A stretch of DNA of 64,000 bases from Bacteroidales bacterium (GCA_029210565.1 JARGFQ010000002.1:89246-153245), one strand, 5' to 3'. Numbered from the stretch's first letter, positions 18,390 to 35,679 are shown. Notes: a model not told the origin generated them from the letters alone. Translations and numbers: made by a program.

Positions 18390-21200
18390 GTGAAAACTAT
18401 GAAGAATCTTTCCAGAGCATTAATGATCCTGGCTCTTATTTCCATGACCTCCTGCCAGAATAAAACAGGAGATGCGTTGAACCTTCCGTTTGAAAAGTAC
18501 CAGCTTGAAAACGGACTCAGTGTCATCCTGCATCAGGATAGGTCAGATCCCATCGTGTCAGTGGCGATTTACTACCATGTCGGTTCCAACCGTGAGGTTC
18601 CGGGCCGCACAGGCTTTGCTCATCTCTTTGAGCATATGATGTTCCAGCAAAGTGAGAATGTCCCTGAAGATCAGTATTTCAGGCTGATACAGAGTGCCGG
18701 CGGAACACTGAACGGATCCACCAATCAGGACCGCACCAACTATTACGAGACGGTACCGAAAAACGCCCTCGAGTTGGTCCTATGGCTGGAGTCAGACCGC
18801 ATGGGGTATCTTGCAAACACCATCACACAGCAGGCTTTTGCCATTCAGCAGAATGTCGTTCAGAATGAAAAACGCCAGAACTACGACAACAGGCCATATG
18901 GTCATTCATCAACCGTCATGGCCAGGGCCCTGTTCCCGGAAGGCCATCCCTACAGCTGGACCACCATCGGGGAGATGAAAGACCTGTTCAACGCCACGGT
19001 GGAGGATGTGAAGGAGTTCCACGGCCGCTTCTACATACCAAATAATGCAACCCTTTCCATTGCCGGCGACTTCGAAACTGAAGAGGTGAAAGCACTGGTT
19101 CGGAAATACTTTGGTGAAATACCCGCAGGGGCTGAAGTGGAGAAGCTGAAGCCGATGCCCGTGACACTGGCAGAGACGAAGAAACTCTATCATGAAGACA
19201 ACTTCGCCAACACTGCACAGTACACCATGGCATTCCCCTCTGCCGAGATGTATAATCCTGATGCCTACGCCCTGACCATCCTGAGTGACATCCTTGCCGG
19301 TGGCAAGAAGTCGCCCATGTACAATGTGCTCGTTAAAGAGAAAAAGCTCACCTCCAATGTGGGTGCCTACAACAGGGCACAGCTGCTTGCCGGTACCTTC
19401 CAGATCTTTGTCAATGCCAACCCGGGCGTATCTCTGACAGAAGTAGAGAATGCTATCTTTGAAGCTTTTGAACGTTTTGAGTCCGAGGGTTTCACCGAGA
19501 AGGATCTTGAGAAGGTTAAAGCCGGCCAGGAGACCCGTTTCTATAACATGATAAGCAGTGTTGACGGTAAATCGAAGCAGCTTGCAGAATATAACATGTA
19601 CGCCGGTGACCCGGGATTTTACAAAAAGGATATGGAGGCAATGAAGGCCGTCACCATGGACGATGTGCAGCGGGTATATGAAAAATATATCAAAAGCAGG
19701 AATTATGTAGCCACCAGTTTCGTGCCCAGGAGCAAGGTTGAGCTTGCAGCCGAGGGATCAGTTGATGCCGGCATAGAAGAGGAGAACATACTTACTGCCA
19801 TCGAGGTAAAGATAGAGGAAGGTGCTGCTGAAGAGATTCAGAAGACACCGACCTCTTTTGACCGCTCCGTACAACCTCCCTTGGGTCCTGATGTGTCGGT
19901 TACCGTACCGACCGTCTGGAGGTCTTCGCTGGCAAACGGCATGCAGCTGTTCGGCATTGAGCATTCCGAGGTGCCTCTTGTTCAGTACAATATTGTAATC
20001 GAGGGAGGCCACATGCTTGATGGTATCAGTGCACCTGGTGTGGCCAACATGCTGGCGATGATGCTCAATGAGGGAACGAAGAACAAAACCCCCGTGGAGC
20101 TGGAGGAGGAGATCGACCTTCTGGGCGCGATGATAAGAGTATCAGCGAATGATGAATCTATAACTGTAAGTGTCAACACCCTTACACGCAATTTTGAGAA
20201 GACTCTCGCCATTGTTGAGGAGATGCTTCTGGAACCCCGGTGGGATTCGCTTGCCTTTGAGATTTCCCGTACACGGGTTCTGAACAATCTGCGGCGCAGC
20301 TCCATTGATCCCACATACCTTGGCTCGAGGGCTCTCGCCCGGCTTACTCTCGGTGAAGGCAATATCTTTGCCACCGATGTTTCTGGCACGGTTGAGAGTG
20401 TTCAGTCGATGACCATGGAGGATCTCAAGGCATTCTATGAGAAGAACATTTCACCCTCGGTAGCAAGGTTCCTGGTTGTGGGTTCGGTTGACCAGGCAGG
20501 CGTGGAGAAGGCTCTTGCCAGGCTCGGGACCAACTGGAGTGCCAAAGAGGTGCAGATACCCGAGATCACCTACGCACAGGCACCTGACAAGGCAGGGGTA
20601 TATTTCGTGGATGTGCCCGGCGCAAAGCAGTCCAATATCTACATAGGAGCTCCCGCTATCCCCCGCAGTCACCCCGACTACTACCCGGCCTATGTTGCCA
20701 ACTACAAGCTTGGCGGCTCATTCAACGGATATGTAAACCTTGTTCTCAGGGAGGAGAAAGGCTACACCTACGGTGCCAGAACAAGTTTCAATGCACAGAA
20801 GCATTACGGAACCTTTGTTGCCAGTTCGGCCGTACGTTCAACAGCCACCCTTGAGTCGGCAGAGATCTTCCGTGACCTGATGAAGCAGTACAGGGAGGGT
20901 GTATCGCAGGGCGACATTGACTTCACGAAGGATGCCCTGCTCAAGGGCAATGCCCTGAGGTTCGAGACCCACAGGGCGCTGCTGGGAATGCTCGGAACCA
21001 TGAGTGAACACGGACTGCCGGACGACTATATTGCCCGTGAAGAGGATTATGTCAGGAAAGTTACTGTTGATGATGTAAATGCCACGGTGCAGAAATATAT
21101 TGACCCGATGAAGATGTATTATGTTGTTGCCGGCGATGCCGCAACTCAGCTAAAAGAGCTTAAGAAACTTGGCTTCGGAGAACCGGTGTTAATCAAATAA
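18390..21200 (+). CDS. M16 zinc protease lipoprotein (PqqL-like, four-domain)
   Basis: Lipobox (MTSC), HLFEH, NGSTNQDRTNY, LREEKGYTYG. Start could be the ATG at 18399. Confidence 0.93.
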   Translation: MKTMKNLSRALMILALISMTSCQNKTGDALNLPFEKYQLENGLSVILHQDRSDPIVSVAIYYHVGSNREVPGRTGFAHLFEHMMFQQSENVPEDQYFRLIQSAGGTLNGSTNQDRTNYYETVPKNALELVLWLESDRMGYLANTITQQAFAIQQNVVQNEKRQNYDNRPYGHSSTVMARALFPEGHPYSWTTIGEMKDLFNATVEDVKEFHGRFYIPNNATLSIAGDFETEEVKALVRKYFGEIPAGAEVEKLKPMPVTLAETKKLYHEDNFANTAQYTMAFPSAEMYNPDAYALTILSDILAGGKKSPMYNVLVKEKKLTSNVGAYNRAQLLAGTFQIFVNANPGVSLTEVENAIFEAFERFESEGFTEKDLEKVKAGQETRFYNMISSVDGKSKQLAEYNMYAGDPGFYKKDMEAMKAVTMDDVQRVYEKYIKSRNYVATSFVPRSKVELAAEGSVDAGIEEENILTAIEVKIEEGAAEEIQKTPTSFDRSVQPPLGPDVSVTVPTVWRSSLANGMQLFGIEHSEVPLVQYNIVIEGGHMLDGISAPGVANMLAMMLNEGTKNKTPVELEEEIDLLGAMIRVSANDESITVSVNTLTRNFEKTLAIVEEMLLEPRWDSLAFEISRTRVLNNLRRSSIDPTYLGSRALARLTLGEGNIFATDVSGTVESVQSMTMEDLKAFYEKNISPSVARFLVVGSVDQAGVEKALARLGTNWSAKEVQIPEITYAQAPDKAGVYFVDVPGAKQSNIYIGAPAIPRSHPDYYPAYVANYKLGGSFNGYVNLVLREEKGYTYGARTSFNAQKHYGTFVASSAVRSTATLESAEIFRDLMKQYREGVSQGDIDFTKDALLKGNALRFETHRALLGMLGTMSEHGLPDDYIAREEDYVRKVTVDDVNATVQKYIDPMKMYYVVAGDAATQLKELKKLGFGEPVLIK

Positions 21201-21210
21201 ATTTCAAGAT

Positions 21211-24012
21211 ATGAAGAGAATTTCAGCATTACTGATTTTGGCTGTATTGATCCTGGCTTCAGGATGCAGCGGAAACAAGAAAAGTACACTTTCCATCCCG
21301 TATGAGAGCTACAAGCTTGGCAACGGGCTGACGGTGATACTCAATGAGGACAAGTCCGACCCCATCACCTCGCTGGTGATACTGTATCATGTGGGTTCAG
21401 GCAGGGAGGTTCCCGGCAAAACCGGGTTCGCTCATCTCTTTGAGCACATGATGTTCCAGCGTTCCGAGAACGTTGGTGAGGATCAGTTCTTCAAATATAT
21501 TCAGGGTGCCGGAGGGATGCTCAACGGTGGAACCAGCTTTGACCAGACAATTTATTTCGAGGTGGTGCCGAAGAATTCGATTGAAATGGCTATGTGGCTC
21601 GAATCGGACCGCATGGGTTTCCTTCGCAATACTGTTACCCCGCAGTCGTTTGCCCTGCAGCAGAATGTGGTGCAAAATGAAAAGCGGCAGGGAGTCGATA
21701 ACCGTCCGTATGGATTCACTGACTACGTGTTGCTTAAGAATCTTTACCCCGAGGGCCATCCGTACAGCTGGGATGTCATCGGGGAGATGGAAGATCTCGC
21801 CAATGCCACGATCGAGGATGTGAAAGAGTTCCACAAGAAGTTCTACATACCCAACAATGCCACCCTTGTCGTCTCAGGTGATTATGAGACTGATGAAATC
21901 AAGGCACTGATTGAAAAGTATTTCGGGGAGATCCCCGCTGGCGAGGAGCTTAAGGATCCGGAGCCGATGAATGTCACGCTGGCAGAGACGAGGAAACTCC
22001 ATCATGAGGATGCCTTTGCACGTGCCCCACAGTACACTATGGTCTTTCCGGTTGCGGAGCAGTTCACAAAGGATTCCTACTCACTGGATGTGCTGGCGCA
22101 GCTGCTGGGGGATGGGAAGAAGTCGCCCCTCTACAAGGTGCTTGTTAAAGAGAGGAAGCTCACCTCGAATGTAAGGGCTTACAACCAGTCGCTGGAGATT
22201 GCAGGCCAGCTTGAGATAAGCATCACCGCTAACCCCTCCACCAGTCTTGATGATGTTGAAAAGGCTGTTTTCGAGGCGTTTGAGAGGTTTGAGACCGAGA
22301 AATTCACGGAGAGGGATCTGGAGAGGATCAAGGCCGGCCTGGAGACCAATTTCTACTCCATGCTGAGCAGTGTCATGTACAAGTCATTCATGCTCGCGAT
22401 GTACAGTGAGTATGCAGGTTCTCCTGACTTCCTGACCGAGGAGCTGGAGATGATGCAGAACGTTACCATGGATGATGTATGGGATGTCTATGGGCGTTAC
22501 ATTGAGGGTAAAAACTATGTCGCGACCAGCTTCGTGCCAAAAGGTCAGCTTGACCTTGTTGCTGAGGGTTCTGTCGATGCCGGGGTGGTTGAGGAGGATG
22601 TCACGCAGGCTACCAAGATGGAGGTTGCTGCCGGCGGTGAGGAGATCATTGAGAAGACCCCGGGCAGCTTCGACCGTTCGGTGGCACCGGCGCCCGGACC
22701 CGATCCTCTGCTGACTCTTCCGGAGGTATGGCAGGCAGAGGCTCTCAACGGGATGAAGATATACGGTATTGAACAGCATGAGCTGCCACTGGTGACTTAT
22801 TCGATTGTCATACAGGGCGGTCATATGCTTGATGATATGAGCAAGCCAGGCGTGGCAAGGTTTACCGCCCAGATGCTTAATGAGGGCACTGCTACCAAAA
22901 CCCCGGAGGAGCTTGAGGAGGAGATAAAGTTGCTGGGTGCAAGTATCAATGTAAGGGGAGGACAGGAAAACATCACGGTGTATGTCAGCGCACTGGCACG
23001 CAACTTTGAAAAGACACTGGCCCTGGTTGAGGAGATGCTTCTGGAGCCGCGCTGGGATGAAGAGCAGTTTTCGATCAACAAGACCCGCACTGTCAACGCA
23101 CTCAAGCGCAATATGGCTGAGCCCAACTACCTGGCCAGCATGACCTTCAACAGGCTGACCCTTGGAGAAGAGAACATCATGTCCGTTGACAACAGCGGAA
23201 CAGTTGAGAGTGTGGAGGCAATCACCATGGATGATCTGAAGGCTTTCTACGAAAAGAATCTATCCCCCTCTGTGGCGAACTTTCATATAGTGGGTGATGT
23301 TGACCAGGAGAGGGTTGAGCAGGCTTTGCAGAGTCTCAATCAGCGCTGGGAGGCCAGGGAGGTCGTCATGCCGGAGCTCTCTTTCCCGCCTGCTCCCGGG
23401 AGATCTGCCATTTATTTCGTTGATGTACCCGGGGCAAAACAGTCGGTGATAAGCATTGGCAACCTTGCCCTGACCCGTGACCATCCCGATTTCTACAAGG
23501 CTGATGTGGCCAACTATATGCTCGGTGGTACCGCCAGTGCCCGTCTATTTATGGTCCTCAGAGAGGAGAAGGGGTTCACCTACGGAGCCTACTCCAACTT
23601 CAACGGCATGAAGAGCTACGGCACCTTCAGGGCATACGCCTCGGTACGTACTGATGCCACACTGGAGTCGGTGGAGCTCTTCAGGGATATCATGAAGGAG
23701 TACCGTGCCGGCGTCCCTCAGGAGACTGTTGATTTCACGAAAGGCTCGCTGCTCAAGGCTAATGCTTTGCGCTTCGAGACCAACGACAGCAAGCTGGGTA
23801 TGCTCAGTACGATGACTACTTACGGTCTGCCGGCTGATTATGTCAGGCAGGAGGAGAGTTACCTCATGGGGTTGACGAAGGAGCAGATGGACGAGACCGT
23901 TCAGAAGTACATTGATCCGATGAGAATGAATTATGTGGTGGTAGGTGATGCTGCGACACAGCTGAAGGAGTTGAAGAAGGTAGGGTTCGGAGAGCCGATT
24001 GAGGTAAAATAA
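21211..24012 (+). CDS. M16 zinc protease lipoprotein, tandem paralogue
   Basis: Lipobox (ASGC), [15 protein letters not shown]. Colinear with the upstream gene. Confidence 0.93.
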
Positions 24013-24063
24013 AAACAATTGCACCATCCGGAGCAGAAAAGTGATATTTTTGCAAAGTCAAAT

Positions 24064-24147
24064 GCCCGGATGGTGGAATGGTAGACACGAAGGACTTAAA
24101 ATCCTTTGGCCATAGCGGCTGTGGGGGTTCAAGTCCCCCTCCGGGTA
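24064..24147 (+). tRNA. tRNA-Leu (TAA)
   Basis: GCCCGGA/TCCGGGT acceptor stem, anticodon loop CTTAAAA, long variable arm, T-loop TTCAAGT. Confidence 0.96.
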
Positions 24148-24149
24148 CC

Positions 24150-24500
24150 CAGAGGCACAAGAGGTCAAAATCGACCTCTTGTTTCTTTTTATGACATTCT
24201 GAAAACCTCACTAATTCTTAGGATGAGATGTATGGGTTCCGTAAGGATGGGTTCTGTTACTTTCCCATTAACCGCAATAAGCTTTTCAGCAAAAATGGTA
24301 TTAAGTATTCTCTTCTAGGTAGCACCGTCTGACTTCCTGTAATATTCCAGAAGGTTCTCCAACATTGGGACTTCCTTCTGAATATTACTCCTGGACGATG
24401 ATACTGCTTGTTGCAGTTCAGTGAGATTGTCTCTGACTGAGACAATCTCTTTATCTACCCTCCCCTTCATATCCTGATAATCCCGGTGTGTAATTCCCAA
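24150..24500 (-). pseudogene. C-terminal remnant of a tRNA-targeting recombinase-family gene
   Basis: Reads ...LLEYYRKSDGAT*KRILNTIFAEKLI..., then frameshifts to KKKQEVDFDLLCLWVPGGGLEP running into the tRNA. Resembles, from memory, the tails of Bacteroidota large serine recombinases. No N-terminal part present. Confidence 0.6.
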
Positions 24501-24631
24501 TGTCAGGAATAAAAAAAATAGCGTCGGAGCCCGTTATTATTAAAAATATAATTTATGTTTGCCTATGGTCTGAAAAATTCTTTACCTTAAGGGAATCAAA
24601 AATGTTTTTGTTTTAATCTTGACAATAGAAA

Positions 24632-25525
24632 ATGTTTAACGTAGCTTCCAGGTCAGATTGTGCATTTGATATTAATAAGAAATTATTCCTTACATATTTA
24701 GTCAAAAACGGTGGTCCTGAACTTCGTGATTATGAAGAATTTGTTTTCATTGTCAATACTTTGGATCCAAAACATCTGCATGAGTTCAGGGAAGTAATAA
24801 ACCCAATACTCAACGTCAATACTTTGATTGGCCGGAGTTACACAAAACCATTTGGGTATCCGGGAGATTTTTATTTAATCGATCATATTTATTCTAACCA
24901 TGTTAATGTAGATAAAAAATATCGTAACTGGGATATTTTTTATCAGAATCAGGCCGGAACAATGGCTGTGAGAAACCGTAAAGATTATTTCATTAATCAA
25001 TGCCTAAATCTTGCTCTTAAAAAACATGGTGAAAAAAGGGTACTGATACTCGGTTCAGGACCGGCAACAGACGTAAATGAATTTCTAAACATATATACCG
25101 GAAACGATATCAGGTTTGACCTTGTGGATTTTGACCAGAATGCTATTGATTATTCGTCAAATAAGAATAAAAAATTTGAAAAATTGATTTCCTATTACAA
25201 GGTCAATGTTTTAAGGTTTGAGCCTTATATGAGGTATGACCTTATCTGGAGTGCCGGATTATTTGATTATTTCAGGGATAAGCACTTTGTTTTCCTGGTA
25301 AAAAAATACCTCAATTACCTGGCAGAAGGAGGTGAACTTGTAATTGGCAATTTCAGCACTGAAAATCCATCACAAATCCTTATGGAGGTGGTATCTGAAT
25401 GGTACCTTAACTACAGAAGCAGAGAGGATCTGTTAAAGATTGCGGGAGATGCAGGCCTCCTGAACGGGAAAGTTTTTGTTGATGCCGAAGCCCTTGGTGT
25501 AAATCTTTTCCTTAATATTCAGTGA
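24632..25525 (+). CDS. Class I SAM-dependent methyltransferase, PhcB-like
   Basis: KPFGYPGDF N-terminal signature, AVRNR, motif I VLILGSGPA, acidic FDLVDFD, YDLIWSAGLFDY, GGELVIGNF, EWYLNYRS. Confidence 0.75.
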   Translation: MFNVASRSDCAFDINKKLFLTYLVKNGGPELRDYEEFVFIVNTLDPKHLHEFREVINPILNVNTLIGRSYTKPFGYPGDFYLIDHIYSNHVNVDKKYRNWDIFYQNQAGTMAVRNRKDYFINQCLNLALKKHGEKRVLILGSGPATDVNEFLNIYTGNDIRFDLVDFDQNAIDYSSNKNKKFEKLISYYKVNVLRFEPYMRYDLIWSAGLFDYFRDKHFVFLVKKYLNYLAEGGELVIGNFSTENPSQILMEVVSEWYLNYRSREDLLKIAGDAGLLNGKVFVDAEALGVNLFLNIQ

Positions 25526-25863
25526 AACTGAAAATAAATTTTTGTTGCAGTGACAAAATTACTGCTATCTAAGACATGCAAGGCACTTGATTCCAGCAAG
25601 TAACGAATCTCAGGCGCTAATTACCTTCCTGTTTGTCGACCTTCCTTCAAATACTCTGTGAGCAAAACATCTTTAGGTTGAGTTAAGGTATATTTGCCTT
25701 GATCCATGTATAAAGCTTTTGTCCAAACAGAAATCCAACTCAATTCAATCGTTACTATAGAAAAAAATATTGAAAATGCTGTTATCCCATAATTTTTTAA
25801 AAGCAATTGATAAAATCTAATCCCCACTTCTGACGTTTATTAATAAATCGATAGTCAGAAAGG

Positions 25864-27828
25864 ATGAATATTTTTAAAAATACGCTTATTAATTCTCTGG
25901 GATTGAGTCGGGAAAGCTCGGAGTCAATGACTTTTAACAAGCTAACCCTTTCATTTACAGGATATTTGTCGAATTATGAATCTGAATTTCTTAATGACTA
26001 CTACGTCAAGGCTTTGAACCCATTCAGGTTTGCACTGATCCTGGCGATGATCTTTTATGGTGCGTTTGCACTTCTTGATGCCGCCACGGTACCGGAACTG
26101 AAAAAAATATTCTGGCTTATAAGGTTCGCTGTTGTATTACCGGGTTTGTTATCAGTATTTGCTTTTACGTATTTCAAAACGTTCAGGAAATATATGCAAT
26201 TGTCGATATCAAGCGTCATGTTCATTACCGGATTCGGGATTATAGTAATGATAATTCTTGGTGCCAGGGTATCTAACTATTCATATTATGCCGGCCTTAT
26301 ACTGATCTTCATTTTTGGATATACATTTGCTAAAGCGCGGTTTATTTATGCATCGTTAGCGGGCTGGCTGATTGTTATTGCTTACGAGATCTCAGCTATA
26401 TGGATCTCAGACACACCTATCACAATTTTGATCAATAACAATTTCTTCTTTATCAGTTCAAATATTATCGGAATGCTCATAGGGTATTCCCTGGAACTAT
26501 CCTCTCGCAGGGATTTTTATATGAGAAAACTCCTTGAACTGGAACAGGACAAAGTCATAACAGCCAACAGCACCCTGGAAAAAAGAGTAATTGAAAGGAC
26601 ACGACAACTGACAGATACCAATTTAAAACTGAAGAAAGAGATTGAGGTTCGCAAAAGATCCGAAAAGCAGAGAAGCGAACTGGAAACTCAGCTTTTTCAA
26701 CTCAAAAAAATTGAGACCATCGGAACGCTGGCAGGGGGTATAGCGCATGACTTTAATAATATTCTGACACCGATTTTGGGTTACACAGATATGGCCCTGG
26801 AGGAAATTCATGAGGATAGCACACTGCGGTTCGATTTGGAACAGATAAATAATGCAGCTGTAAGAGGAAAAGACCTGGTCCAGCAAATCCTGACATTCAG
26901 CCGGGAAGTAAACGTGGAGAAGAAGCCTGTTAAAATTAACCAGATAGTGGTCGAAGTAATAAACCTTATCAAGGCATCCCTCCCTCACGCAATTGAGATA
27001 AGAAAAAGTATTGATTCGGGAGTAGGGATAATTCTTGCAGATCCGGTTCATATACACCAGATTATCATGAATTTATGTACAAATGCCATCCATGCGATGA
27101 AAAACAGGGGAGGCATCCTTGACATAAAGGTCGATAGTGTACTTGTAGATCAGAAAACGACGAAGAAAATTAACAATCTTAAGATTGGGATTTATGTAAG
27201 AATCAGACTATCAGATACTGGTCATGGGATGGACAGACGAACAAAGGAAAGGATTTTTGAACCATTCTTTACCAGAAAAGAAGTGGGTTCAGGAACAGGG
27301 CTAGGTCTTTCTGTTGTGCATGGTATAGTCAGCAATTATAATGGGGCAATAACTGTAGACAGCACTCCGGGGAAAGGTACATTATTCACTGTTTATCTTC
27401 CATACAACATTTCAGATCCCGTAAATGAAATCAAATCTTTGGATCAGCTTCCAAGGGGAGTCGAACACATCCTGTTTGTCGACGATGAACAGGACATAAC
27501 TTTTATGGGCAAAAAGATGCTGGAAAATCTCGGGTATAAAGTCACCACCAGGACCAACACAAGTGAAGCATTTGAGGAATTTAAAAGAAACCCCGGGAAA
27601 TATTCATTACTTGTAACAGATCAGACAATGCCCAAAATGCTGGGAACCGAACTTGCCGAAAAAATGAGGAAAATAAATCCCGATCTGAAAGTCATTATAA
27701 TAACCGGATACATCGGCAAATTATCCGATGCGACAAAGTCAAAAACCGGTTCTTATGAAATGCTCCTGAAACCTATCAAATTGAGCGAGTTCAGCAAGGT
27801 TATCAGAAAAGTCCTGGATGAAAACTAA
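25864..27828 (+). CDS. Hybrid sensor histidine kinase (about 6 TM sensor, HisKA, HATPase, REC)
   Basis: Multi-TM N-terminus with YYAGL, H-box AGGIAHDFNN, N-box NLCTNA, DTGHGM, GTGLGLS, receiver LFVDDE...TDQTMP...KP. Confidence 0.93.
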   Translation: MNIFKNTLINSLGLSRESSESMTFNKLTLSFTGYLSNYESEFLNDYYVKALNPFRFALILAMIFYGAFALLDAATVPELKKIFWLIRFAVVLPGLLSVFAFTYFKTFRKYMQLSISSVMFITGFGIIVMIILGARVSNYSYYAGLILIFIFGYTFAKARFIYASLAGWLIVIAYEISAIWISDTPITILINNNFFFISSNIIGMLIGYSLELSSRRDFYMRKLLELEQDKVITANSTLEKRVIERTRQLTDTNLKLKKEIEVRKRSEKQRSELETQLFQLKKIETIGTLAGGIAHDFNNILTPILGYTDMALEEIHEDSTLRFDLEQINNAAVRGKDLVQQILTFSREVNVEKKPVKINQIVVEVINLIKASLPHAIEIRKSIDSGVGIILADPVHIHQIIMNLCTNAIHAMKNRGGILDIKVDSVLVDQKTTKKINNLKIGIYVRIRLSDTGHGMDRRTKERIFEPFFTRKEVGSGTGLGLSVVHGIVSNYNGAITVDSTPGKGTLFTVYLPYNISDPVNEIKSLDQLPRGVEHILFVDDEQDITFMGKKMLENLGYKVTTRTNTSEAFEEFKRNPGKYSLLVTDQTMPKMLGTELAEKMRKINPDLKVIIITGYIGKLSDATKSKTGSYEMLLKPIKLSEFSKVIRKVLDEN

Positions 27829-27839
27829 TCACTTTAGCT

Positions 27840-28214
27840 ATGGCGAAAATTTTGATAATAGACGATGATCCTTCGATATTGACAATGCTTAAAAGGATGC
27901 TTGAAAAAGCCGGATACGAAGTTGATATTGCCAGCAACGGCAGTGAAGGTTTGGAAAAAATTGAATGCTGTCCCCCGGATCTTTTGGTAACTGATATTGT
28001 AATGCCTGAAAAAGAAGGTCTTGAACTGATTTTCTACCTGAGAAAAAATAATCCAGGATTAAAGATCGTAGCAATCTCAGGTGGTGGAAGATTTAACTAT
28101 GAGGGATATCTCACCGGTGCAAAACACCTGGGGGCTCATCTGGTCTTTCAGAAGCCGTTAGTACACAAAGAATTTGTACAGGCTATATCTGACCTTATTA
28201 ATACTAAAATGTAG
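27840..28214 (+). CDS. Single-domain response regulator (REC only)
   Basis: ILIIDDD, TDIVMPEKEG, AISGGG, QKP. No output domain. Confidence 0.93.
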   Translation: MAKILIIDDDPSILTMLKRMLEKAGYEVDIASNGSEGLEKIECCPPDLLVTDIVMPEKEGLELIFYLRKNNPGLKIVAISGGGRFNYEGYLTGAKHLGAHLVFQKPLVHKEFVQAISDLINTKM

Positions 28215-28503
28215 CGGCTTTTTTCACCTTTCATCACCGGCGGAATCCCGATCCCATCATCTTTCACATAAAAGGTAATTTTTTCATCATCCGGGGAATA
28301 CCCGAATTCAATATTCCCCGCTTCAGTGAACTTGAAGGTATTAGTTTAGAATGGTTAATTTTTACTGGCGAGAAGTGGCCTGAATCATCGGCATTTGCAG
28401 ATAGTCGATTGAACCACCTGAAAAAACAGATTAAATTTATATTTTGTAACTTACATTTTGTAACTAACAAGATGTTATATATATTTGCAGAAAGCTTAAC
28501 AGA

Positions 28504-29643
28504 ATGAATCCAAAAAAATTGCAAAATCCGTTTCCTGTATCAACCTATCAGGGTCCGGATTATTTCTGTGACCGTGAGCAGGAAACATTAAAACTGGTCA
28601 GCAATATCACTTCCGGTATGTCATCAGTCCTGGTTTCAGTGAGGAGAATCGGTAAAACAGGTCTTCTTCAGCATGTCCTTACGCGACTTCCTGACGGATT
28701 CAAAGGGATTTACATAGATATTCTGGAAACGGAAAACATGCGCCACTTTTTAAATCACCTTGGCACAGCATTGCTTCTTGCTGAGTCTGAAGAAACGGGA
28801 ACTGGCAGAAAGATCTGGGATTTTATTAAATCACTGAGGCCGGTAATAACCTTTGAAACACTTACCGGAGCTCCCCAGGCTTCATTTGACTTTAAGACAA
28901 AACAAACCGAACAGAGTATAGATTCCATCCTTTCTTTTCTTGATAGTCAATCTTTCAGGACAGTAATTGCAATTGATGAATTTCAGCAGATAGCAAACTA
29001 TCCTGAAAAAAATGCTGATGCATGGTTAAGAACCAGAATGCAGCAGCTGAAGAATACGGTTTTCATTTTCTCAGGGAGCCAGCAGCATATCATGTCAGAG
29101 CTTTTTGCTTCTCCTAAACGTCCATTCTTCAGAAGCACGACAATAATGAAGCTTGAAAAGCTCGAATTCAATGTCTACAGGGATTTTATCATCGGTCAGT
29201 TTAAACGCTACGGCAAAGATATCAGTAAGGAAGTTGCAGAGGAGATACTGCAATGGGGAGACAGGCATACTTATTATGTTCAGCTTGTCTGTAACCGGGT
29301 TTTTGCGGCTGCTTCGAAGAAAGTGACTTCAGACCTTTGGAAACAACAGGCTTATGAGTTGCTGAAAGAACAGGAAATTGTATTTTTCGGATACCGCAGT
29401 TTGCTAACCTCGAACCAGTGGCAGCTCCTGAAGGCTATCGCCCAGGAGGGGAAAGTTTTTAAACCAACATCACAGGACTTTCTCGGGCGATATGGATTAT
29501 TGAATTCAGCGTCTGTTCTGCGATCACTCCAGTCATTAATGAAGTATAAACTGGTATTCAGGGATTTCGATTCCGGGGGCACGTTATTCTATAGCATCTA
29601 CGATGTATTATTCCAAAAATGGTGTCTCATGAATAAACAATAA
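28504..29643 (+). CDS. AAA+ (archaeal-ATPase-like) ATP-binding protein with C-terminal wHTH
   Basis: NPF...YFCDREQE, Walker A RRIGKT, Walker B IAIDEFQ, FSGSQ. Preceded by two ATTTTGTAACT copies (28441-28465) and TATATTTG. Confidence 0.85.
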   Translation: MNPKKLQNPFPVSTYQGPDYFCDREQETLKLVSNITSGMSSVLVSVRRIGKTGLLQHVLTRLPDGFKGIYIDILETENMRHFLNHLGTALLLAESEETGTGRKIWDFIKSLRPVITFETLTGAPQASFDFKTKQTEQSIDSILSFLDSQSFRTVIAIDEFQQIANYPEKNADAWLRTRMQQLKNTVFIFSGSQQHIMSELFASPKRPFFRSTTIMKLEKLEFNVYRDFIIGQFKRYGKDISKEVAEEILQWGDRHTYYVQLVCNRVFAAASKKVTSDLWKQQAYELLKEQEIVFFGYRSLLTSNQWQLLKAIAQEGKVFKPTSQDFLGRYGLLNSASVLRSLQSLMKYKLVFRDFDSGGTLFYSIYDVLFQKWCLMNKQ

Positions 29644-29716
29644 GGAATACATTTAATACCCTGATCTTCTCCTGAACATTATCATTGCACATGTATCTGC
29701 CTTTAAAGACCACACC

Positions 29717-30688
29717 ATGAGATATACTCTTTCAGCCATTTTACTTATTTGGGGCTTATTTTCAGGATGCACCCATCAGTTACGTTATTCAGGCAATCCG
29801 GTCTTCCCCGGTTGGTATGCTGATCCGGAAGGAATCATTTACAATGAAATGTACTGGATATTTCCCACATATTCAGCACCCTACGAGGAGCAGGTATTTA
29901 TGGATGCATTCTCGTCAAAGGATCTGACAAACTGGGAGAAGCACCCGCGAATCATAGATACCGGTGCTGTCAGCTGGGCTGATAAAGCCATGTGGGCTCC
30001 TTCGGTCATAAAGAGAGACGGTAATTACTTTTTATTCTTCGGTGCAAATGACATACAGTCCGATGAAGAGACCGGGGGTATCGGAATTGCTGTTGCCGAA
30101 AAGCCGGAAGGTCCCTACAGGGATTACCTCGGTAAACCTTTGATAGATAAGTTTCACAATGGAGCCCAGCCCATCGATCAGTTCGTTTTCGAAGATGCTG
30201 ATGGCAGGCTTTATCTGATTTACGGAGGCTGGCGGCACTGTAACATTGTAAAGCTCAAAGATGACCTGACGGGGGTCGAACCATCGGAAGACGGAACGTT
30301 GTTCCGTGAAATAACACCGGATGGCTATGTTGAGGGTCCCTTTATGTTCATACGCAATGATAAATACTATTTCATGTGGTCGGAGGGAGGATGGACAGGT
30401 CCGGATTACAGTGTTGCATATGCCATCAGCGAATCACTTTTCGGACCTTTCGAAAGGATTGGAAAGATACTCCAGCAGGATCCTTCAATAGCAACCGGAG
30501 CAGGGCATCACTCGGTTATACGGATACCTGGCACGGATAATTATTATATTGTTTACCATCGGAGGCCAATGGGTCAGAAGGACCGTAATGCCAGAGAAGT
30601 ATGTATTGAAAAAATGGAATTTGATGAGAATGGACTCATAAAAGCAGTTACCATAACAAAGGAGGGAGTACCGGCCCGGCCAGAGTAA
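29717..30688 (+). CDS. Glycoside hydrolase family 43 lipoprotein
   Basis: YADP, MWAPS, PIDQ, YVEGPF, AGHHS. Lipobox FSGC. Confidence 0.92.
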   Translation: MRYTLSAILLIWGLFSGCTHQLRYSGNPVFPGWYADPEGIIYNEMYWIFPTYSAPYEEQVFMDAFSSKDLTNWEKHPRIIDTGAVSWADKAMWAPSVIKRDGNYFLFFGANDIQSDEETGGIGIAVAEKPEGPYRDYLGKPLIDKFHNGAQPIDQFVFEDADGRLYLIYGGWRHCNIVKLKDDLTGVEPSEDGTLFREITPDGYVEGPFMFIRNDKYYFMWSEGGWTGPDYSVAYAISESLFGPFERIGKILQQDPSIATGAGHHSVIRIPGTDNYYIVYHRRPMGQKDRNAREVCIEKMEFDENGLIKAVTITKEGVPARPE

Positions 30689-30941
30689 GAAATGTTATTC
30701 AGGCACCTGACGGGTCAATATAAGTTTCAGTTGAGAATCCGGGAAGAATCATACAGATTCTGCCGGAGTAAATCATAAGATACTCCTTCACCTGGTTGCA
30801 AATTTTGTCCGTTCGGGGTACTTTAAGAGCCTCTTAATATTCAGATATTGAGGGGCCTCTTCTTCCCCGGTACAAAAATTGAATACTATATAGGTCCGCA
30901 TCTGCTCCTCCATGTGTAACAGCAGACACCTCTTCCCCTGA

Positions 30942-31799
30942 TTAGTCCATATTAATAAACTGATAACTGAGTGTTCCTTCCCGGTTTGTAACCCTCAGAT
31001 AAGAAGCATATTCAAAATCGTCAATCAGGGCATCAAGTGTTATATACTGTGTTGCATCAAAGTTCTCCACTGAACGACGGTGATCATGGCCCATTATTAC
31101 CATATCGACGTTATTATCAGCGAAGAGGTCGAGCAATGCATATAATTCCTCAATAAGGGGAACGGTACTCGTCACACGGTGGGTACGAAAAAAGTTAACA
31201 TGAGTAAAGACTATGCAGTTCCTGTAGTTGCCCCGGGTGTTCCTGATAGTTTCCTTAAGCCAGTTCATCTGTTTTGACCCCAAAGTCGCGGTACCGGTAT
31301 CAATGCAAATGAAAAGGTCCTTTCCGGACAGGGAGATGACTGTAAAAGTATAAGTTGAGGTACCAAAATAATTCATATAAGATTGCCATCCATCAAAAAA
31401 CAGATCATGATTTCCGACTGTCGGAAAATATGGTTTGGTATCAAGCCGGGCCAGGTGTGTATACACTGTATCATAGTCATATGACTGGCCTGAGGTCATG
31501 TCGCCCACCAGGATAGAGAATGAAATTTCCGGAGCAGTTGTCTTCTCTATAAAAAAGTCAAGATAGTCAGCATGACCGCAATGAGAATCGCCGGCCACCA
31601 GAAAAGTATAACTGTCTGAATTCACAATTATATCTCTTGCAGGATGAGACTCGTTCCATTTCACCGATTGTTCAAACCTCTCGTTGGAAGATGCCTCGGA
31701 GTAGAAGAATCCGCTATAATCCACCTCATCTGAGCATGACTGGAGAATAATTACGGCAGCCCAAAAAATTATATGTCCGATCCTTTTAAGATATCCCAT
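30942..31799 (-). CDS. Calcineurin-like metallophosphoesterase lipoprotein
   Basis: GDSH, GDMT, GNHD, FTH, GHDH motifs. Lipobox LQSC. Confidence 0.88.
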   Translation of the reverse strand: MGYLKRIGHIIFWAAVIILQSCSDEVDYSGFFYSEASSNERFEQSVKWNESHPARDIIVNSDSYTFLVAGDSHCGHADYLDFFIEKTTAPEISFSILVGDMTSGQSYDYDTVYTHLARLDTKPYFPTVGNHDLFFDGWQSYMNYFGTSTYTFTVISLSGKDLFICIDTGTATLGSKQMNWLKETIRNTRGNYRNCIVFTHVNFFRTHRVTSTVPLIEELYALLDLFADNNVDMVIMGHDHRRSVENFDATQYITLDALIDDFEYASYLRVTNREGTLSYQFINMD

Positions 31800-32536
31800 T
31801 TTATTCCAAATCGAAGTAAATAGCCGAAGTAATCTACTTTTATGACTAACAGGCCTGCGGTCTTGTATCCTATATCAATGAATGACGACAGGTTCTCATC
31901 AAACCGGTATTTTCCTTTCAGAATGATCATCGGATTGGTCTCCTGTTCGAACATGAAATAATCATTATTGGTTACGGAAACCATTACATTCCATTGTTCC
32001 TCTTCCTTTCTGACGAGGTACTGAAATGTATAAATCAAATTTCCGGGTTCGATTATCCGGTATTTGCCGGAAGTACTCTCGTCTGATCTGATATATGCTT
32101 TACTGAACCTGAATGTTCTGTAGTTATTACCAAAGGTAAAATGGAAATGGGACAATTTGTAATTTAGAGTTATCCCCCAGTTTGTTTCTCTTAATTCGTT
32201 TGAGAATGGCACCCACAGATAGAATCCGGAGACTGCAAAAGCCTGTTTGTGAATTGAAAATTTACGTGTATAACCAACGGAATAACCTCCAAAATTATTC
32301 TCCCGCTGACCTCCGGCCGAGAACAGGATACCGGCAACAAAACTATCATCTCCCAGGTCGTAAGAAGGGAATATGGAAAAATTGAAATAGCCCTCATCAT
32401 AGACATAATTCCGACCGGTTTCAACGAAGCTCATAACTGAAGGTTGGGAGGAGCAGAGAAAATTAACAAACCAGATCAGGGACAATGATACTGCCAATCT
32501 CTTTCCAAAAATGCCTTTAAGTAGTTGTCTAAGCAT
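31769..32536 (-). CDS. Hypothetical outer-membrane beta-barrel-like protein
   Basis: Signal-like N-terminus and alternating aromatic strands. Overlaps the phosphoesterase start. Confidence 0.6.
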   Translation of the reverse strand: MLRQLLKGIFGKRLAVSLSLIWFVNFLCSSQPSVMSFVETGRNYVYDEGYFNFSIFPSYDLGDDSFVAGILFSAGGQRENNFGGYSVGYTRKFSIHKQAFAVSGFYLWVPFSNELRETNWGITLNYKLSHFHFTFGNNYRTFRFSKAYIRSDESTSGKYRIIEPGNLIYTFQYLVRKEEEQWNVMVSVTNNDYFMFEQETNPMIILKGKYRFDENLSSFIDIGYKTAGLLVIKVDYFGYLLRFGIKWDILKGSDI

Positions 32537-33011
32537 ACAGATTGACTTACAGGGCTTACTGAAGTAAAATCAAATATACACTTATTCCTGGTTTTCTATA
32601 AGTTGGTCAGAAAAGTAGAGAGTCTGTCTGATAATAAAATCCATACTCTGACTAAAGTCAATTGTGCATTTTATTTACCGGCAACAGCCTTCCTCGCAGC
32701 TTCCAGGTGGATGTATAGTTCATGATTGCAGATGGGTTTTAATTCCCGGGCCCTTTCAAGGATTTACAGGGCTTCCTGGTATAAGCCCTTTTTTTATAGT
32801 CCCCAGCCTTTTGAGTCCAGGTAGTTGTAATTACCAGGTTCTGTTTCCAGGGCTTTTTCAACAAGGGCCAGCCCTTCCTCTATGTCAATATCTGCGCCAT
32901 GTCTGAATTTTGTGACTAATTATCAGTGATACAGCAAAAACAAGTGCTCTGATGATTAACCGGCAATCTCATTATATTTGCATCTCATTTCATTATTGCA
33001 CCCTGAAAGTT

Positions 33012-34388
33012 ATGGATAAAAAAGAGCTGGAATCGATCCTTGAGAGCCAGAGGAAATTCTTTGCTTCAGGCAAGACACTTGATATTGATTATAGACTCGC
33101 TAATCTTAAGAAACTGAAGTCGCTGATCCTGCAATATGAAGATGAACTGAAAACAGCTCTTCAAAAGGACTTTCACAAGCCGGGATTTGAGGTTTTTGGC
33201 TCGGAGTCCAGGTTTTCAGTTGCTGAGATTAACCTTATTATTCGTAACCTGAAAAGATGGTCTGGCAAACGTAGAGTCAGAACTTCCATTGCAAATTTCC
33301 CGGCCCGAAGCTATGTCGTGCCGCAGCCATACGGACAGGTGCTCATTCTCTCTCCCTGGAACTATCCTTTCCAGTTGTCTATGGTTCCGCTCACAGGGGC
33401 ACTGGCTGCCGGAAACTGCATTGTTCTGAAAGTATCACAGAAGGTACCCGGCACCATTGAAGTCATATCAAAGATAGTCAGCCATTTCCCGAAAGAACTG
33501 ATTTTACTTGTTACCGGAGAACACTCCCGGAGCGATTATCTCCTGAACTTTCCGTTTGATCATATTTTCTTTACGGGAAGCACGGCTGTCGGAAGGAAAG
33601 TAATGACGAAGGCCGCTGCGAATCTCACTCCCGTAACGCTCGAACTTGGTGGCAAAAATCCATGTGTTGTTGCCGCCGATGCAAAGCTCAGTTACGCAGC
33701 AAAAAGGATAGCCTCCGGCAAATTCATAAATGCCGGCCAGACATGCGTGTCTCCCGATTATCTGCTTGTTGATGATAAGGTAAAGGAGCGTTTTCTTGAA
33801 CTTCTTGTCAGTGAAATAAAATTGTTCTACGGTGAGGATCCGTATGTAAGCCAGGACTTCAGTCGCATGATCAATGCCGAGAAAACGGAGAGAATGGGCT
33901 CGTTCCTTAAAAACGGCAATATCATAACCGGCGGCATTGCAGATCCGGAAACCTGCTATGTGGCTCCGACAATAATTACCGGGGTCAAACCGGAAGATCC
34001 CGTAATGCAGGAGGAGATATTCGGGCCGGTTCTGCCGGTGATCACCTTCGACGATTTCGCTGAAGTATATTCTGTCATCAACTGCAACCCGAAGCCACTG
34101 GCGGCGTATATCTTCACCACAAGCAAAAAGCTCACCCGGGAGTTCCTTTCCGGAACACAGAGCGGCACTGCAGCCGTCAACGATACGGTAATGCAGATCG
34201 CATCACCACACCTGCCTTTCGGGGGGTTCGGCCCCAGCGGAATGGGCAGGTATCACGGAAGAAAGTCTTTTGAGACATTCTCAAACATGAGATCGGTGAT
34301 GGAAAAATCGAACCTCATAGACATTCCCGTACGTTATCCGCCTTATACGGCGTTCAAAGAGAAATTGCTAAGACTTTTAATGAGATAG
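33012..34388 (+). CDS. Aldehyde dehydrogenase (ALDH3/YwdH-like)
   Basis: SPWNYP, FTGSTAVG, LELGGKNP, NAGQTCVSPD, EEIFGP, PFGGFGPSGMGRYHG. Confidence 0.95.
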   Translation: MDKKELESILESQRKFFASGKTLDIDYRLANLKKLKSLILQYEDELKTALQKDFHKPGFEVFGSESRFSVAEINLIIRNLKRWSGKRRVRTSIANFPARSYVVPQPYGQVLILSPWNYPFQLSMVPLTGALAAGNCIVLKVSQKVPGTIEVISKIVSHFPKELILLVTGEHSRSDYLLNFPFDHIFFTGSTAVGRKVMTKAAANLTPVTLELGGKNPCVVAADAKLSYAAKRIASGKFINAGQTCVSPDYLLVDDKVKERFLELLVSEIKLFYGEDPYVSQDFSRMINAEKTERMGSFLKNGNIITGGIADPETCYVAPTIITGVKPEDPVMQEEIFGPVLPVITFDDFAEVYSVINCNPKPLAAYIFTTSKKLTREFLSGTQSGTAAVNDTVMQIASPHLPFGGFGPSGMGRYHGRKSFETFSNMRSVMEKSNLIDIPVRYPPYTAFKEKLLRLLMR

Positions 34389-35175: not shown

Positions 35176-35679
35176 TCACCGGTATGATATATCGATAATT
35201 TCAAAGACAATATCTGACCTGTCTCGTTTCAAGAAAATCCTTTCGCCGACTTTTTTGTTTATCAGTGCCCTTGCCACAGGTGATATGAACGAGACCTTGC
35301 CTCTGGCAATATCAGCCTCGTCAACCCCTACAATCTGAAAAGTCTGTATTTTGCCTGATGTCGCATTTTTCAGGGTTACCGTGGCCCCGAAAGTCACTTC
35401 ATTCTTCTGTTGCTCTTCCGGTTCGACGATCCGGGCTTCGGCTATCCTGTTATTGAGTAACTGCAGTTTTGCTTTGATGAAGTTAATGGCCAGTCGCTTT
35501 TCATTCTCATTGGCGATGTTCAGGTTCTCCCTCTCCTGTATCAACGCCTCCTTTTCAGCCAACAACTCCTCCATCCCGTTGCGGGTGACAAAGTTTGGCA
35601 CACCCTCTGGCAGATATGCCCTCTGCGGCACCATTGGCACCTCTTCCTGATCACCTTCCCTGACGAATCCTCTGCTCAT
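35176..35679 (-). CDS. GreA/GreB family elongation factor
   Basis: MSRGFVREGD N-terminus, VTFGATV, IVGVDEAD, SFISPVARAL. Confidence 0.9.
   Translation of the reverse strand: MSRGFVREGDQEEVPMVPQRAYLPEGVPNFVTRNGMEELLAEKEALIQERENLNIANENEKRLAINFIKAKLQLLNNRIAEARIVEPEEQQKNEVTFGATVTLKNATSGKIQTFQIVGVDEADIARGKVSFISPVARALINKKVGERIFLKRDRSDIVFEIIDISYR

Follow-up and report, generated by a model that had tools for sequence, protein, structure and literature searches.

Does a small gene cluster beside a tRNA gene of a Bacteroidales genome encode an enzyme together with the membrane kinase that reads its product? The cluster occupies positions 24632-28214 of a 64,000-nucleotide (nt) stretch of Bacteroidales bacterium GCA_029210565.1 (JARGFQ010000002.1:89246-153245), which we call the window. 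An earlier note on this DNA had described three co-directional genes, for a S-adenosylmethionine (SAM) methyltransferase, a hybrid histidine kinase and a receiver-only protein, and had proposed that they form a synthase-sensor-relay unit homologous to the phc quorum-sensing system of Ralstonia. The open reading frame (ORF) listing agrees exactly, with three co-directional ORFs on the plus strand just 3' of tRNA-Leu. Based on homology and gene linkage, we suggest, with a probability of about 0.9, that the methyltransferase and the kinase are a PhcB/PhcS-homologous, functionally coupled pair. The cassette is made up of the following features.

24632-25525, + strand: PhcB-family SAM-dependent methyltransferase, core-only form, 297 amino acids (aa) (ORF, profile homology and model)
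25526-25863, + strand: methyltransferase-kinase spacer, 338 nt, differing in length among relatives
25864-27828, + strand: hybrid kinase, 654 aa (ORF listing, Pfam)
25864-26568, + strand: predicted PhcS-type six-transmembrane (6-TM) intramembrane sensor domain, kinase residues 1-235 (profile alignment, 6-TM model)
26725-27405, + strand: kinase core, with HisKA at 26725-26904 (H-box His295) and HATPase_c at 27040-27405 (Pfam)
27469-27804, + strand: receiver domain fused to the kinase (Pfam Response_reg, residues 536-647, E 5.5e-17)
27840-28214, + strand: single-domain response regulator, 124 aa (Pfam Response_reg, residues 4-116, E 1.4e-22)

The sequence motifs on which the proposal had been built were all found in the translations, namely KPFGYPGDF (residues 72-80), AVRNR (112-116), SAGLFDY (207-213), GNF (239-241) and WYLNYR (257-262) in the methyltransferase, and YYAGL at residues 141-145 of the kinase. 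In Pfam the first protein matched class-I SAM-methyltransferase models alone, each just below its cut-off, and in NCBIfam it matched NodS alone (E 0.0012). The predicted structure, with a predicted local distance difference test (pLDDT) score of 88.8, shows the Rossmann-type methyltransferase fold and strand order, and G141, G143, D163 and D166 are invariant among 29 sequences together with the SAGLFDY block. As judged from sequence and model, the protein is a class-I SAM-dependent methyltransferase with intact SAM-binding motifs, and it is present as one copy in its own genome. The model also predicts a family-specific helical lid at the N-terminus (residues 14-130). The best global fold match is 3ocj, an uncharacterised Bordetella protein, and a sequence search of the PDB with the methyltransferase profile returned a single weak generic match.

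A word-indexed search returned 1220 relatives of the methyltransferase, and many of them carry the automatic Joint Genome Institute (JGI) label 'extracellular factor (EF) 3-hydroxypalmitic acid methyl ester biosynthesis protein', which is derived from KEGG phcB. For a comparison with PhcB itself, reference phcBSRQ loci of Ralstonia pickettii, Cupriavidus and Paraburkholderia were used. A tblastn search of plasmids led to a Paraburkholderia graminis locus with genes for a methyltransferase of 468 aa, a kinase of 445 aa and a pair of response regulators, and this methyltransferase as bait recovered 80 loci in Paraburkholderia, Cupriavidus, Janthinobacterium and Ralstonia pickettii. In the R. pickettii locus (L153), four co-directional genes encode proteins of 463, 453, 377 and 333 aa, and their domain plans are those of PhcB, PhcS, PhcR (REC, HisKA and HATPase) and PhcQ (REC). 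The same plans have been published, with PhcR as a receiver plus kinase and PhcQ as a receiver (PMC8578825). The H-box histidine of the R. pickettii PhcS is residue 241 counted from the listed TTG start and 231 counted from Met11, and it has been published as His230 (PMC11960443). In addition, PhcB and PhcQ homologues are known in Ralstonia, Cupriavidus and Paraburkholderia, and phcB and phcS orthologues in C. taiwanensis (PMC6989110). We conclude that the reference loci are genuine phcBSRQ.

When the window's methyltransferase was compared by BLASTP with the Paraburkholderia and R. pickettii PhcB proteins, E-values of 2e-29 (27% identity) and 1e-25 (26%) were obtained. When a profile of 78 Bacteroidales methyltransferases was aligned by hhalign with a profile of 80 PhcB orthologues, the probability was 99.8% (E 1.1e-29) over 240 columns, covering residues 53-295 of the former and 200-459 of PhcB. 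All the named motifs fall in register, with KPFGYPGDF opposite KPLGYAGDY, AVRNR opposite AHRNR, SAGLFDY opposite CAGLFDY and WYLNYR opposite WYLIYR. The expected relationship to PhcB is thereby borne out, and by these alignments the methyltransferase is a PhcB homologue across its catalytic core.

These data also bear on a different role for the enzyme, in which it would be a protein methyltransferase that tunes the kinase or the receiver in the manner of CheR-type adaptation. Of the sub-threshold Pfam models, Methyltransf_PK, a family of protein N-terminal methyltransferases, scores best, with 26 bits where 27 are required, and NTMT1 chains occur among the fold matches. However, the top fold neighbours are small-molecule O-methyltransferases, no CheR-titled entry stands among the 50 ranks listed, and a helical N-terminal lid such as the one predicted here is typical of small-molecule methyltransferases. 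Moreover, PhcB, the closest characterised homologue, makes a small molecule (PMC8578825). We consider protein methylation highly improbable.

The family shows some variety outside the cassette. One 499-aa member (L172:5499-6995, + strand) carries a cyclic-nucleotide-binding domain at its N-terminus, where PhcB bears its own N-terminal region, which suggests that N-terminal regulatory modules may vary on a common methyltransferase core. The methyltransferase also matches a segment within an annotated type I polyketide synthase of Enterobacter ludwigii plasmids (27% identity, E 2e-15), and the family therefore also exists as an embedded polyketide synthase domain.

The second protein has HisKA at residues 288-347, HATPase_c at 393-514 and the fused Response_reg, and residues 1-235 have no usable Pfam family at E<=10, with AC_N (E 2.5) as the sole match. 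An AlphaFold model of this region (25 relatives, pLDDT 82.8) consists of six long helices, the last of which continues into the kinase. Since the connecting loops comprise just 1-5 residues, the sensor would be intramembrane and devoid of a periplasmic domain, which upholds the description given in the earlier note. In pairwise comparison, the alignment with the Paraburkholderia kinase (E 1e-28) begins at residue 27 and extends across the TM region, where YYAGL and FYAGL face each other; with R. pickettii PhcS, the kinase core alone aligned. The membrane regions were therefore compared separately as profiles, one from 70 Bacteroidales sequences (window residues 1-235) and one from 71 PhcS orthologues (residues 1-205). 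The hhalign score was 46.0 (88.2%, E 3e-6), with 183 collinear columns joining residues 29-218 to 11-196. Controls that address hydrophobic composition gave 13.2 and 13.3 for reversed profiles, at most 18.7 for 30 column shuffles and at most 29.0 for 30 block shuffles, in which 22-column blocks kept the helices whole; all 62 controls scored below the real alignment. We hold with moderate confidence that the kinase sensor is homologous to the PhcS sensor, the second relationship that had been proposed for this locus.

The modelled sensor was also compared with known structures. In Foldseek the 6-TM domain of ImcA, a diguanylate cyclase of P. aeruginosa (8wcn), came first with a TM-score of 0.64-0.66, followed by membrane adenylyl cyclases. 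VIA-align gave Z-scores of 17.6 for ImcA (212 residues, 2.8 Å), 14.6 for adenylyl cyclase AC5 (8sl3) and 13.8 for AC9 (6r3q); the three superpositions have root-mean-square deviations of 2.8-3.0 Å over 194-212 residues, and the next row has a Z-score of 11.5 with far fewer residues. When the sensor profile was run against 177,635 PDB sequences, ImcA (E 4.7e-4, whole domain) and AC5 (E 4.8e-3) were the top two. The predicted sensor fold matches the six-helix bundle shared with ImcA and the membrane adenylyl cyclases.

We then consider how firmly the enzyme and the sensor are linked. Among the best 80 genome-contig loci, titled Bacteroidales, Rikenellaceae or Bacteroidota metagenome-assembled genomes, the sensor kinase is directly downstream of the methyltransferase in 71 and lies about 3-3.8 kb upstream in seven (L072, L074-L076, L078-L080), where the kinase core is different; the other two (L014, L077) are cut off by contig ends. 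The two genes are thus adjacent or near each other in all 78 assessable loci, the rearranged ones included. The sensors of the seven rearranged loci share 35-42% identity with that of the window, and the kinase core is 24-25% identical in the three loci where it was matched. Because these loci keep the sensor and not the kinase core, it is the sensor domain that stays with the enzyme. When the ORFs flanking the 80 loci were clustered, the recurrent ones were the methyltransferase (80), the kinase (78) and the receiver (65); the next cluster, found in 24 loci, is an antisense ORF within the kinase gene, and no other cluster is seen in more than 17 loci. No receiver match was found in five of the 71 loci with the kinase downstream, and in each of these the contig ends first.

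The pair is also gained and lost together within the genus. Three of 24 other genomes (G405, G416 and G423) carry the methyltransferase, the same three carry an adjacent sensor, and the remaining 21 have neither, so that with the window's own genome four of 25 have both and 21 have neither. Twelve of the 24 congener genomes are at least 90% complete, and two of those twelve carry the pair. In addition, the divergence of the methyltransferase follows that of the sensor (r 0.885). In a partial Mantel test with 999 permutations on 64 full-length loci, the correlation persisted when the kinase core was taken into account (partial r 0.73, p 0.001), and the partial r between methyltransferase and kinase core was 0.06.

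The arrangement of the genes raises another explanation, in which the kinase would sense an exogenous lipophile, such as free fatty acids, and the methyltransferase would be a response enzyme that esterifies it and thereby detoxifies or inactivates it. Genes controlled by two-component systems often adjoin them, the variable methyltransferase-kinase spacer (about 30-340 nt across loci L001-L071) is compatible with separate regulation, and other members of the methyltransferase family adjoin a TM kinase of an unrelated type, as described below. However, the cassette has no DNA-binding regulator that could drive the methyltransferase gene, the methyltransferase gene precedes that of the kinase in 71 of the 78 loci, like phcB, and the enzyme is homologous to a signal synthase. 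We judge such a response enzyme to be improbable.

Several observations weigh against a coupled pair that produces and reads its own signal. First, a phylum-wide even sample of 401 genomes was searched with cut-offs of E<=1e-20 for the methyltransferase and E<=1e-10 for the sensor; the former occurs in 13 genomes, the latter in 10, and both in two (G000 and G304). The co-occurrence that the earlier note had asked to be tested holds for the 78 linked loci and for gain and loss within the genus, but in the phylum sample unpaired methyltransferases and unpaired sensors are more numerous than pairs. Second, ten of the 13 methyltransferase-positive genomes belong to one family (f25), and in all five of its loci that were examined (L167-L171) the methyltransferase, a sister group scoring 313-325 bits against the profile, adjoins a 714-737-aa hybrid kinase with two receivers and a loop-less N-terminus of 5-6 TM helices. 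The N-termini of these kinases showed no detectable relation to either sensor profile (scores 17.7 and 14.7). Since this N-terminus is unrelated in sequence to the PhcS type, the enzyme has a second kind of membrane partner. Third, eight sensor loci are solos, with no methyltransferase within the flanks examined, which leaves room for a sensor that reads something besides a dedicated product. Fourth, at an identity of about 26% to PhcB the enzyme may act on another substrate, and the N-terminal ~190 residues of PhcB (463-468 aa) have no counterpart in the 297-aa methyltransferase. The fold search returned generic small-molecule O-methyltransferases and nothing that points to a substrate. The homology to PhcB does not fix the substrate either, because the family is large: an exhaustive profile search counted 4912 clusters at E<=1e-3, of which 570 reach E<=1e-30. 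Fifth, the divergence of the fused receiver also correlates with that of the methyltransferase (partial r 0.61); the co-variation is therefore confounded, and differences in rate may explain part of it. Finally, the cassette has neither a DNA-binding output nor an Hpt domain, and the carriers are uncultured organisms.

The solo sensors deserve a closer description. In six of them the sensor is fused to other modules, namely PAS-kinase-receiver (L175), SpoIIE (L176:6944-8353 and L178:6908-8491, both + strand), PAS-GAF-kinase (L180), PAS-kinase (L181) and TIR (L182:6953-8092, + strand). Solo receptors are common in other signalling systems, and the solos are compatible with a synthase-receptor relationship. 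They also fit an explanation in which the two genes are linked without communication between cells. Here the methyltransferase would modify an envelope or membrane lipid, and the kinase would monitor the lipid pool or the bilayer itself, as part of homeostasis or a stress response. The sensor is wholly intramembrane, it occurs without the methyltransferase in eight of the ten sensor-positive sample genomes with varied outputs, so that it can function in the absence of a dedicated synthase, and the related 6-TM domain of ImcA is reported to act via protein contacts and not via a known small ligand (PMC10904736). However, the homologous pair of Ralstonia is an established diffusible-signal system (PMC8578825, PMC11960443), and an optional signalling module would better account for the way in which the two genes are strictly gained and lost together as an accessory part of an island. 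Lipid homeostasis is, in our estimate, rather unlikely, although it is the strongest of the alternatives considered for this pair.

The pairing may also extend to another output. On Rhizobium (L163, L164) and Roseateles (L082) plasmids, a 345-348-aa methyltransferase is divergent beside a 665-667-aa GGDEF/EAL protein. The N-terminus of the latter aligned with the Bacteroidales sensor profile over 178 collinear columns with a score of 37.2 (60%, E 8.6e-5), and the maxima of the controls were 16.6 and 25.1. Against the PhcS profile the score was 21.8, which is inside the range of the block shuffles run for the Bacteroidales profile (maximum 25.1). These comparisons are suggestive of an enzyme-sensor pairing with a cyclic di-GMP (c-di-GMP) output as well.

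We next turn to the relay. The third protein matches Response_reg and no other Pfam domain, in agreement with its description as receiver-only and with the statement that no DNA-binding output is encoded at the cassette. Judged by eye and unaligned, both receivers seem to retain the acidic pocket, the phospho-acceptor Asp, the Ser/Thr and the Lys. A single Hpt match was found in the window's own genome (G000), in a stand-alone protein of 146 aa encoded on contig C33, and six LytTR proteins are encoded elsewhere in this genome. The stand-alone Hpt and the LytTR proteins are candidates for a connection in trans, and nothing ties either of them to the cassette. The Hpt gene (L166:1342-2139) is immediately followed by a gene for a 116-aa STAS-domain protein, and this pairing hints at a link of phosphorelay with partner-switching. 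Among the rearranged loci, the order in L074 is a sensor hybrid kinase, a REC-HisKA_2-HATPase protein (the PhcR plan), a REC-LytTR protein and the methyltransferase; in loci of this type, the REC-LytTR protein is the DNA-binding output that the window's cassette is without.

Taken together, we prefer the coupled synthase-sensor pair, and its operation can be pictured as follows. The methyltransferase would use SAM to convert a cellular lipophilic acid into a methyl ester. 3-Hydroxy fatty acids are abundant in Bacteroidota lipids, and because of this abundance and the analogy with PhcB, a 3-hydroxy fatty acid would be the likeliest substrate; the identification of the product as a 3-hydroxy fatty acid methyl ester is nevertheless tentative, at somewhat less than even odds. 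The ester would partition into membranes and be able to exit the cell. The loop-less six-helix sensor may then bind the ester inside the bilayer, which would alter the kinase or phosphatase activity at His295. Phosphate would pass to the fused receiver, to the adjacent single-domain receiver or to both, and the single-domain receiver could act in trans on targets outside the cassette, via protein-protein contacts or via the sole stand-alone Hpt. It seems reasonably likely that the product of the enzyme is what the kinase senses. A product of this kind, its sensing by the kinase and its use as a diffusible signal are inferred.

The earlier note had also placed the cassette in an island at tRNA-Leu, and both the base composition and the comparison with congeners confirm this. 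The features of the site are given here.

24063-24151, + strand: tRNA-Leu(taa), left anchor of the variable island (ARAGORN)
24140-24232, + strand: att-like repeat of 93 nt, made up of 12 nt from the 3' end of the tRNA and 81 nt that hold a terminator-like hairpin (repeat in congener G416)
24233-33373, no strand assigned: low-GC variable island (GC drop and break of congener synteny)
24483-28246, + strand: conserved three-gene cassette module (89-95% nucleotide similarity to congeners G416 and G405)

Up to 24 kb the GC content ranges from 0.49 to 0.55; it drops to 0.34-0.44 in the segment from about 24.2 to 33.2 kb and recovers to 0.48-0.50 further on. The tRNA-Leu gene adjoins an M16 peptidase gene that is also found in the cassette-free congeners G417, G409 and G402. 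In the closest of the cassette-free congeners, G417, whose M16 gene has 90% nucleotide identity, the M16 gene, the tRNA-Leu and the sequence up to 24232 are retained. Unrelated DNA then follows for 12.6 kb, and synteny with the window returns at 35176; in the cassette-free G402, it returns at 33374. Similarity to G416 and G405 starts at 24483/24484, ends at 28246 and is interrupted within the 25526-25863 spacer. The 93-nt segment is a single copy in the window's own genome, and in G416 (L191) three copies (95, 88 and 86% identical) lie around the cassette and the module after it, a pattern that resembles site-specific integration in series. No integrase was found among the ORFs examined in the island. 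The downstream island genes (ATPase_2, GH43 and metallophosphoesterase) occur in none of the 80 related loci, and for this reason the ATPase_2 gene is placed outside the cassette. Based on the island evidence, the tRNA-Leu site is an integration hotspot with the cassette as one of its cargo modules, and the cassette is probably a self-contained, horizontally mobile, three-gene phc-type signalling unit.

Other observations were made at this site. The cargo beside tRNA-Leu differs from congener to congener (L188 in G417, L190 in G402, L191 in G416 and L192 in G405). The M16 peptidase gene has a tandem paralogue (20185-21204 and 22937-23997, about 65% nucleotide identity), and the pair is also present in congeners. 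A terminator-like hairpin lies at 24157-24182. The ATPase_2 gene (PF01637; 28504-29643, + strand) encodes a weak Rio2_N-like winged-helix C-terminus.

Contigs assembled from RNA libraries of relatives (Logan; four runs, three studies) cover parts of all three genes with 88-99% likeness. One contig of 1237 nt spans the end of the methyltransferase gene and the start of the kinase gene, another spans the kinase-receiver junction, and in a relative's contig the methyltransferase-kinase spacer is 76 nt. As DNA carry-over is possible and a contig over two genes is not proof of a single transcript, these contigs give a weak hint that the cassette genes are expressed in relatives. A scan for promoters and terminators, with the sigma-70 consensus as the sole promoter model, gave counts equal to those in shuffled sequences, including in the 25526-25863 spacer, and was uninformative. 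In one relative's RNA-library contig 24183-24482 is missing, and 19 other letters connect 24182 with 24483. Within this missing segment of about 300 nt, which may be left over from older cargo, are short ORFs of 61-62 aa on the minus strand.

To our knowledge, work on phc-type signalling has treated it as peculiar to Ralstonia and bacteria closely related to it, and we know of no dedicated autoinducer synthase-receptor pair established for Bacteroidota. Literature searches for PhcB with Bacteroidetes and for 3-hydroxypalmitic acid methyl ester with Bacteroid* gave no description of a phc-type system in this phylum, in line with what the earlier note had said of Bacteroidales. 3-Hydroxypalmitic acid methyl ester is listed among the signals sought by protein name in rumen genomes (PMC9540692), and another paper that mentions it does no more than cite work on quenching. 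The sequence link to phcB had already been made by annotation pipelines, since the automatic JGI labels carry it. If no such pair has yet been established in Bacteroidota, a coupled pair that is island-borne and present in at least 78 species-level Bacteroidales genomes would open the question to experiment, and a compact unit of one enzyme, one membrane sensor and one receiver provides a clean experimental handle.

Compared with the phc system of Ralstonia, an established diffusible-signal system, the window's cassette shares a homologous methyltransferase core, a probably homologous polytopic TM sensor on a histidine kinase, and a synthase gene directly upstream of the sensor gene. Both systems also have relay proteins with receiver domains and no DNA-binding domain (PMC8578825). 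The differences are considerable. The identity is low, the methyltransferase is without the N-terminal region of PhcB, and the kinase is a hybrid, whereas the R. pickettii PhcS has no receiver. No PhcR-type REC-kinase is present in the cassette, although one occurs in the L074-type relatives, and the receiver is without a C-terminal extension like that of PhcQ, so its likeness to PhcQ is that of a receiver with no DNA-binding domain. Of the synthase-sensor-relay homology that had been proposed, the enzyme and the sensor stand and the relay is reduced to this likeness. In Ralstonia phc is a core virulence regulator, whereas here the genes are accessory island genes in an uncultured anaerobe-type Bacteroidales. 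The cassette is thus a phc variant with a core-only methyltransferase, a CqsS-like hybrid kinase architecture, a bare receiver and a mobile island.

A second comparison is with the alpha-hydroxyketone systems CqsA/CqsS of Vibrio and LqsA/LqsS of Legionella, in which the dedicated synthase of a lipophilic signal is likewise encoded beside a six-TM receptor kinase with no periplasmic domain; the likeness to CqsS and LqsS drawn here is one of architecture. CqsS is a hybrid kinase that requires a separate Hpt. The CqsA/LqsA synthases are pyridoxal phosphate-dependent acyl-CoA transferases, unlike the methyltransferase.

The third comparison is with ImcA and the membrane adenylyl cyclases, with which the modelled sensor shares its fold over the whole 6-TM domain and from which it differs in output (GGDEF and cyclase, respectively). 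The 6-TM domain of ImcA (L47-E231) is reported to be required for interaction with its partner, and it has no known ligand (PMC10904736). For the adenylyl cyclase anchors, there is debate over what the ligands are (PMC12414865), and the CqsS 6-TM quorum receptor is reported to be able to replace an adenylyl cyclase anchor of 'identical 6TM design' (PMC4821796). The PhcS sensor would thus be tied, by fold and by sequence, to proteins whose ligands are an open problem. A speculative and on balance doubtful extension is that the PhcS-type sensor is a branch of one large 6-TM receptor superfamily, for which Pfam has no model, together with ImcA and the class III adenylyl cyclase anchors, and that its ligands are made by dedicated PhcB-family synthases in three lineages or more, Bacteroidales and Burkholderiales with kinase outputs and Rhizobiaceae with c-di-GMP outputs. 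Signalling by lipid methyl esters would then be ancient and shared across phyla. If this were true, the bacterial synthase-receptor pairs would provide a defined class of ligands for probing the orphan 6-TM anchors of adenylyl cyclases.

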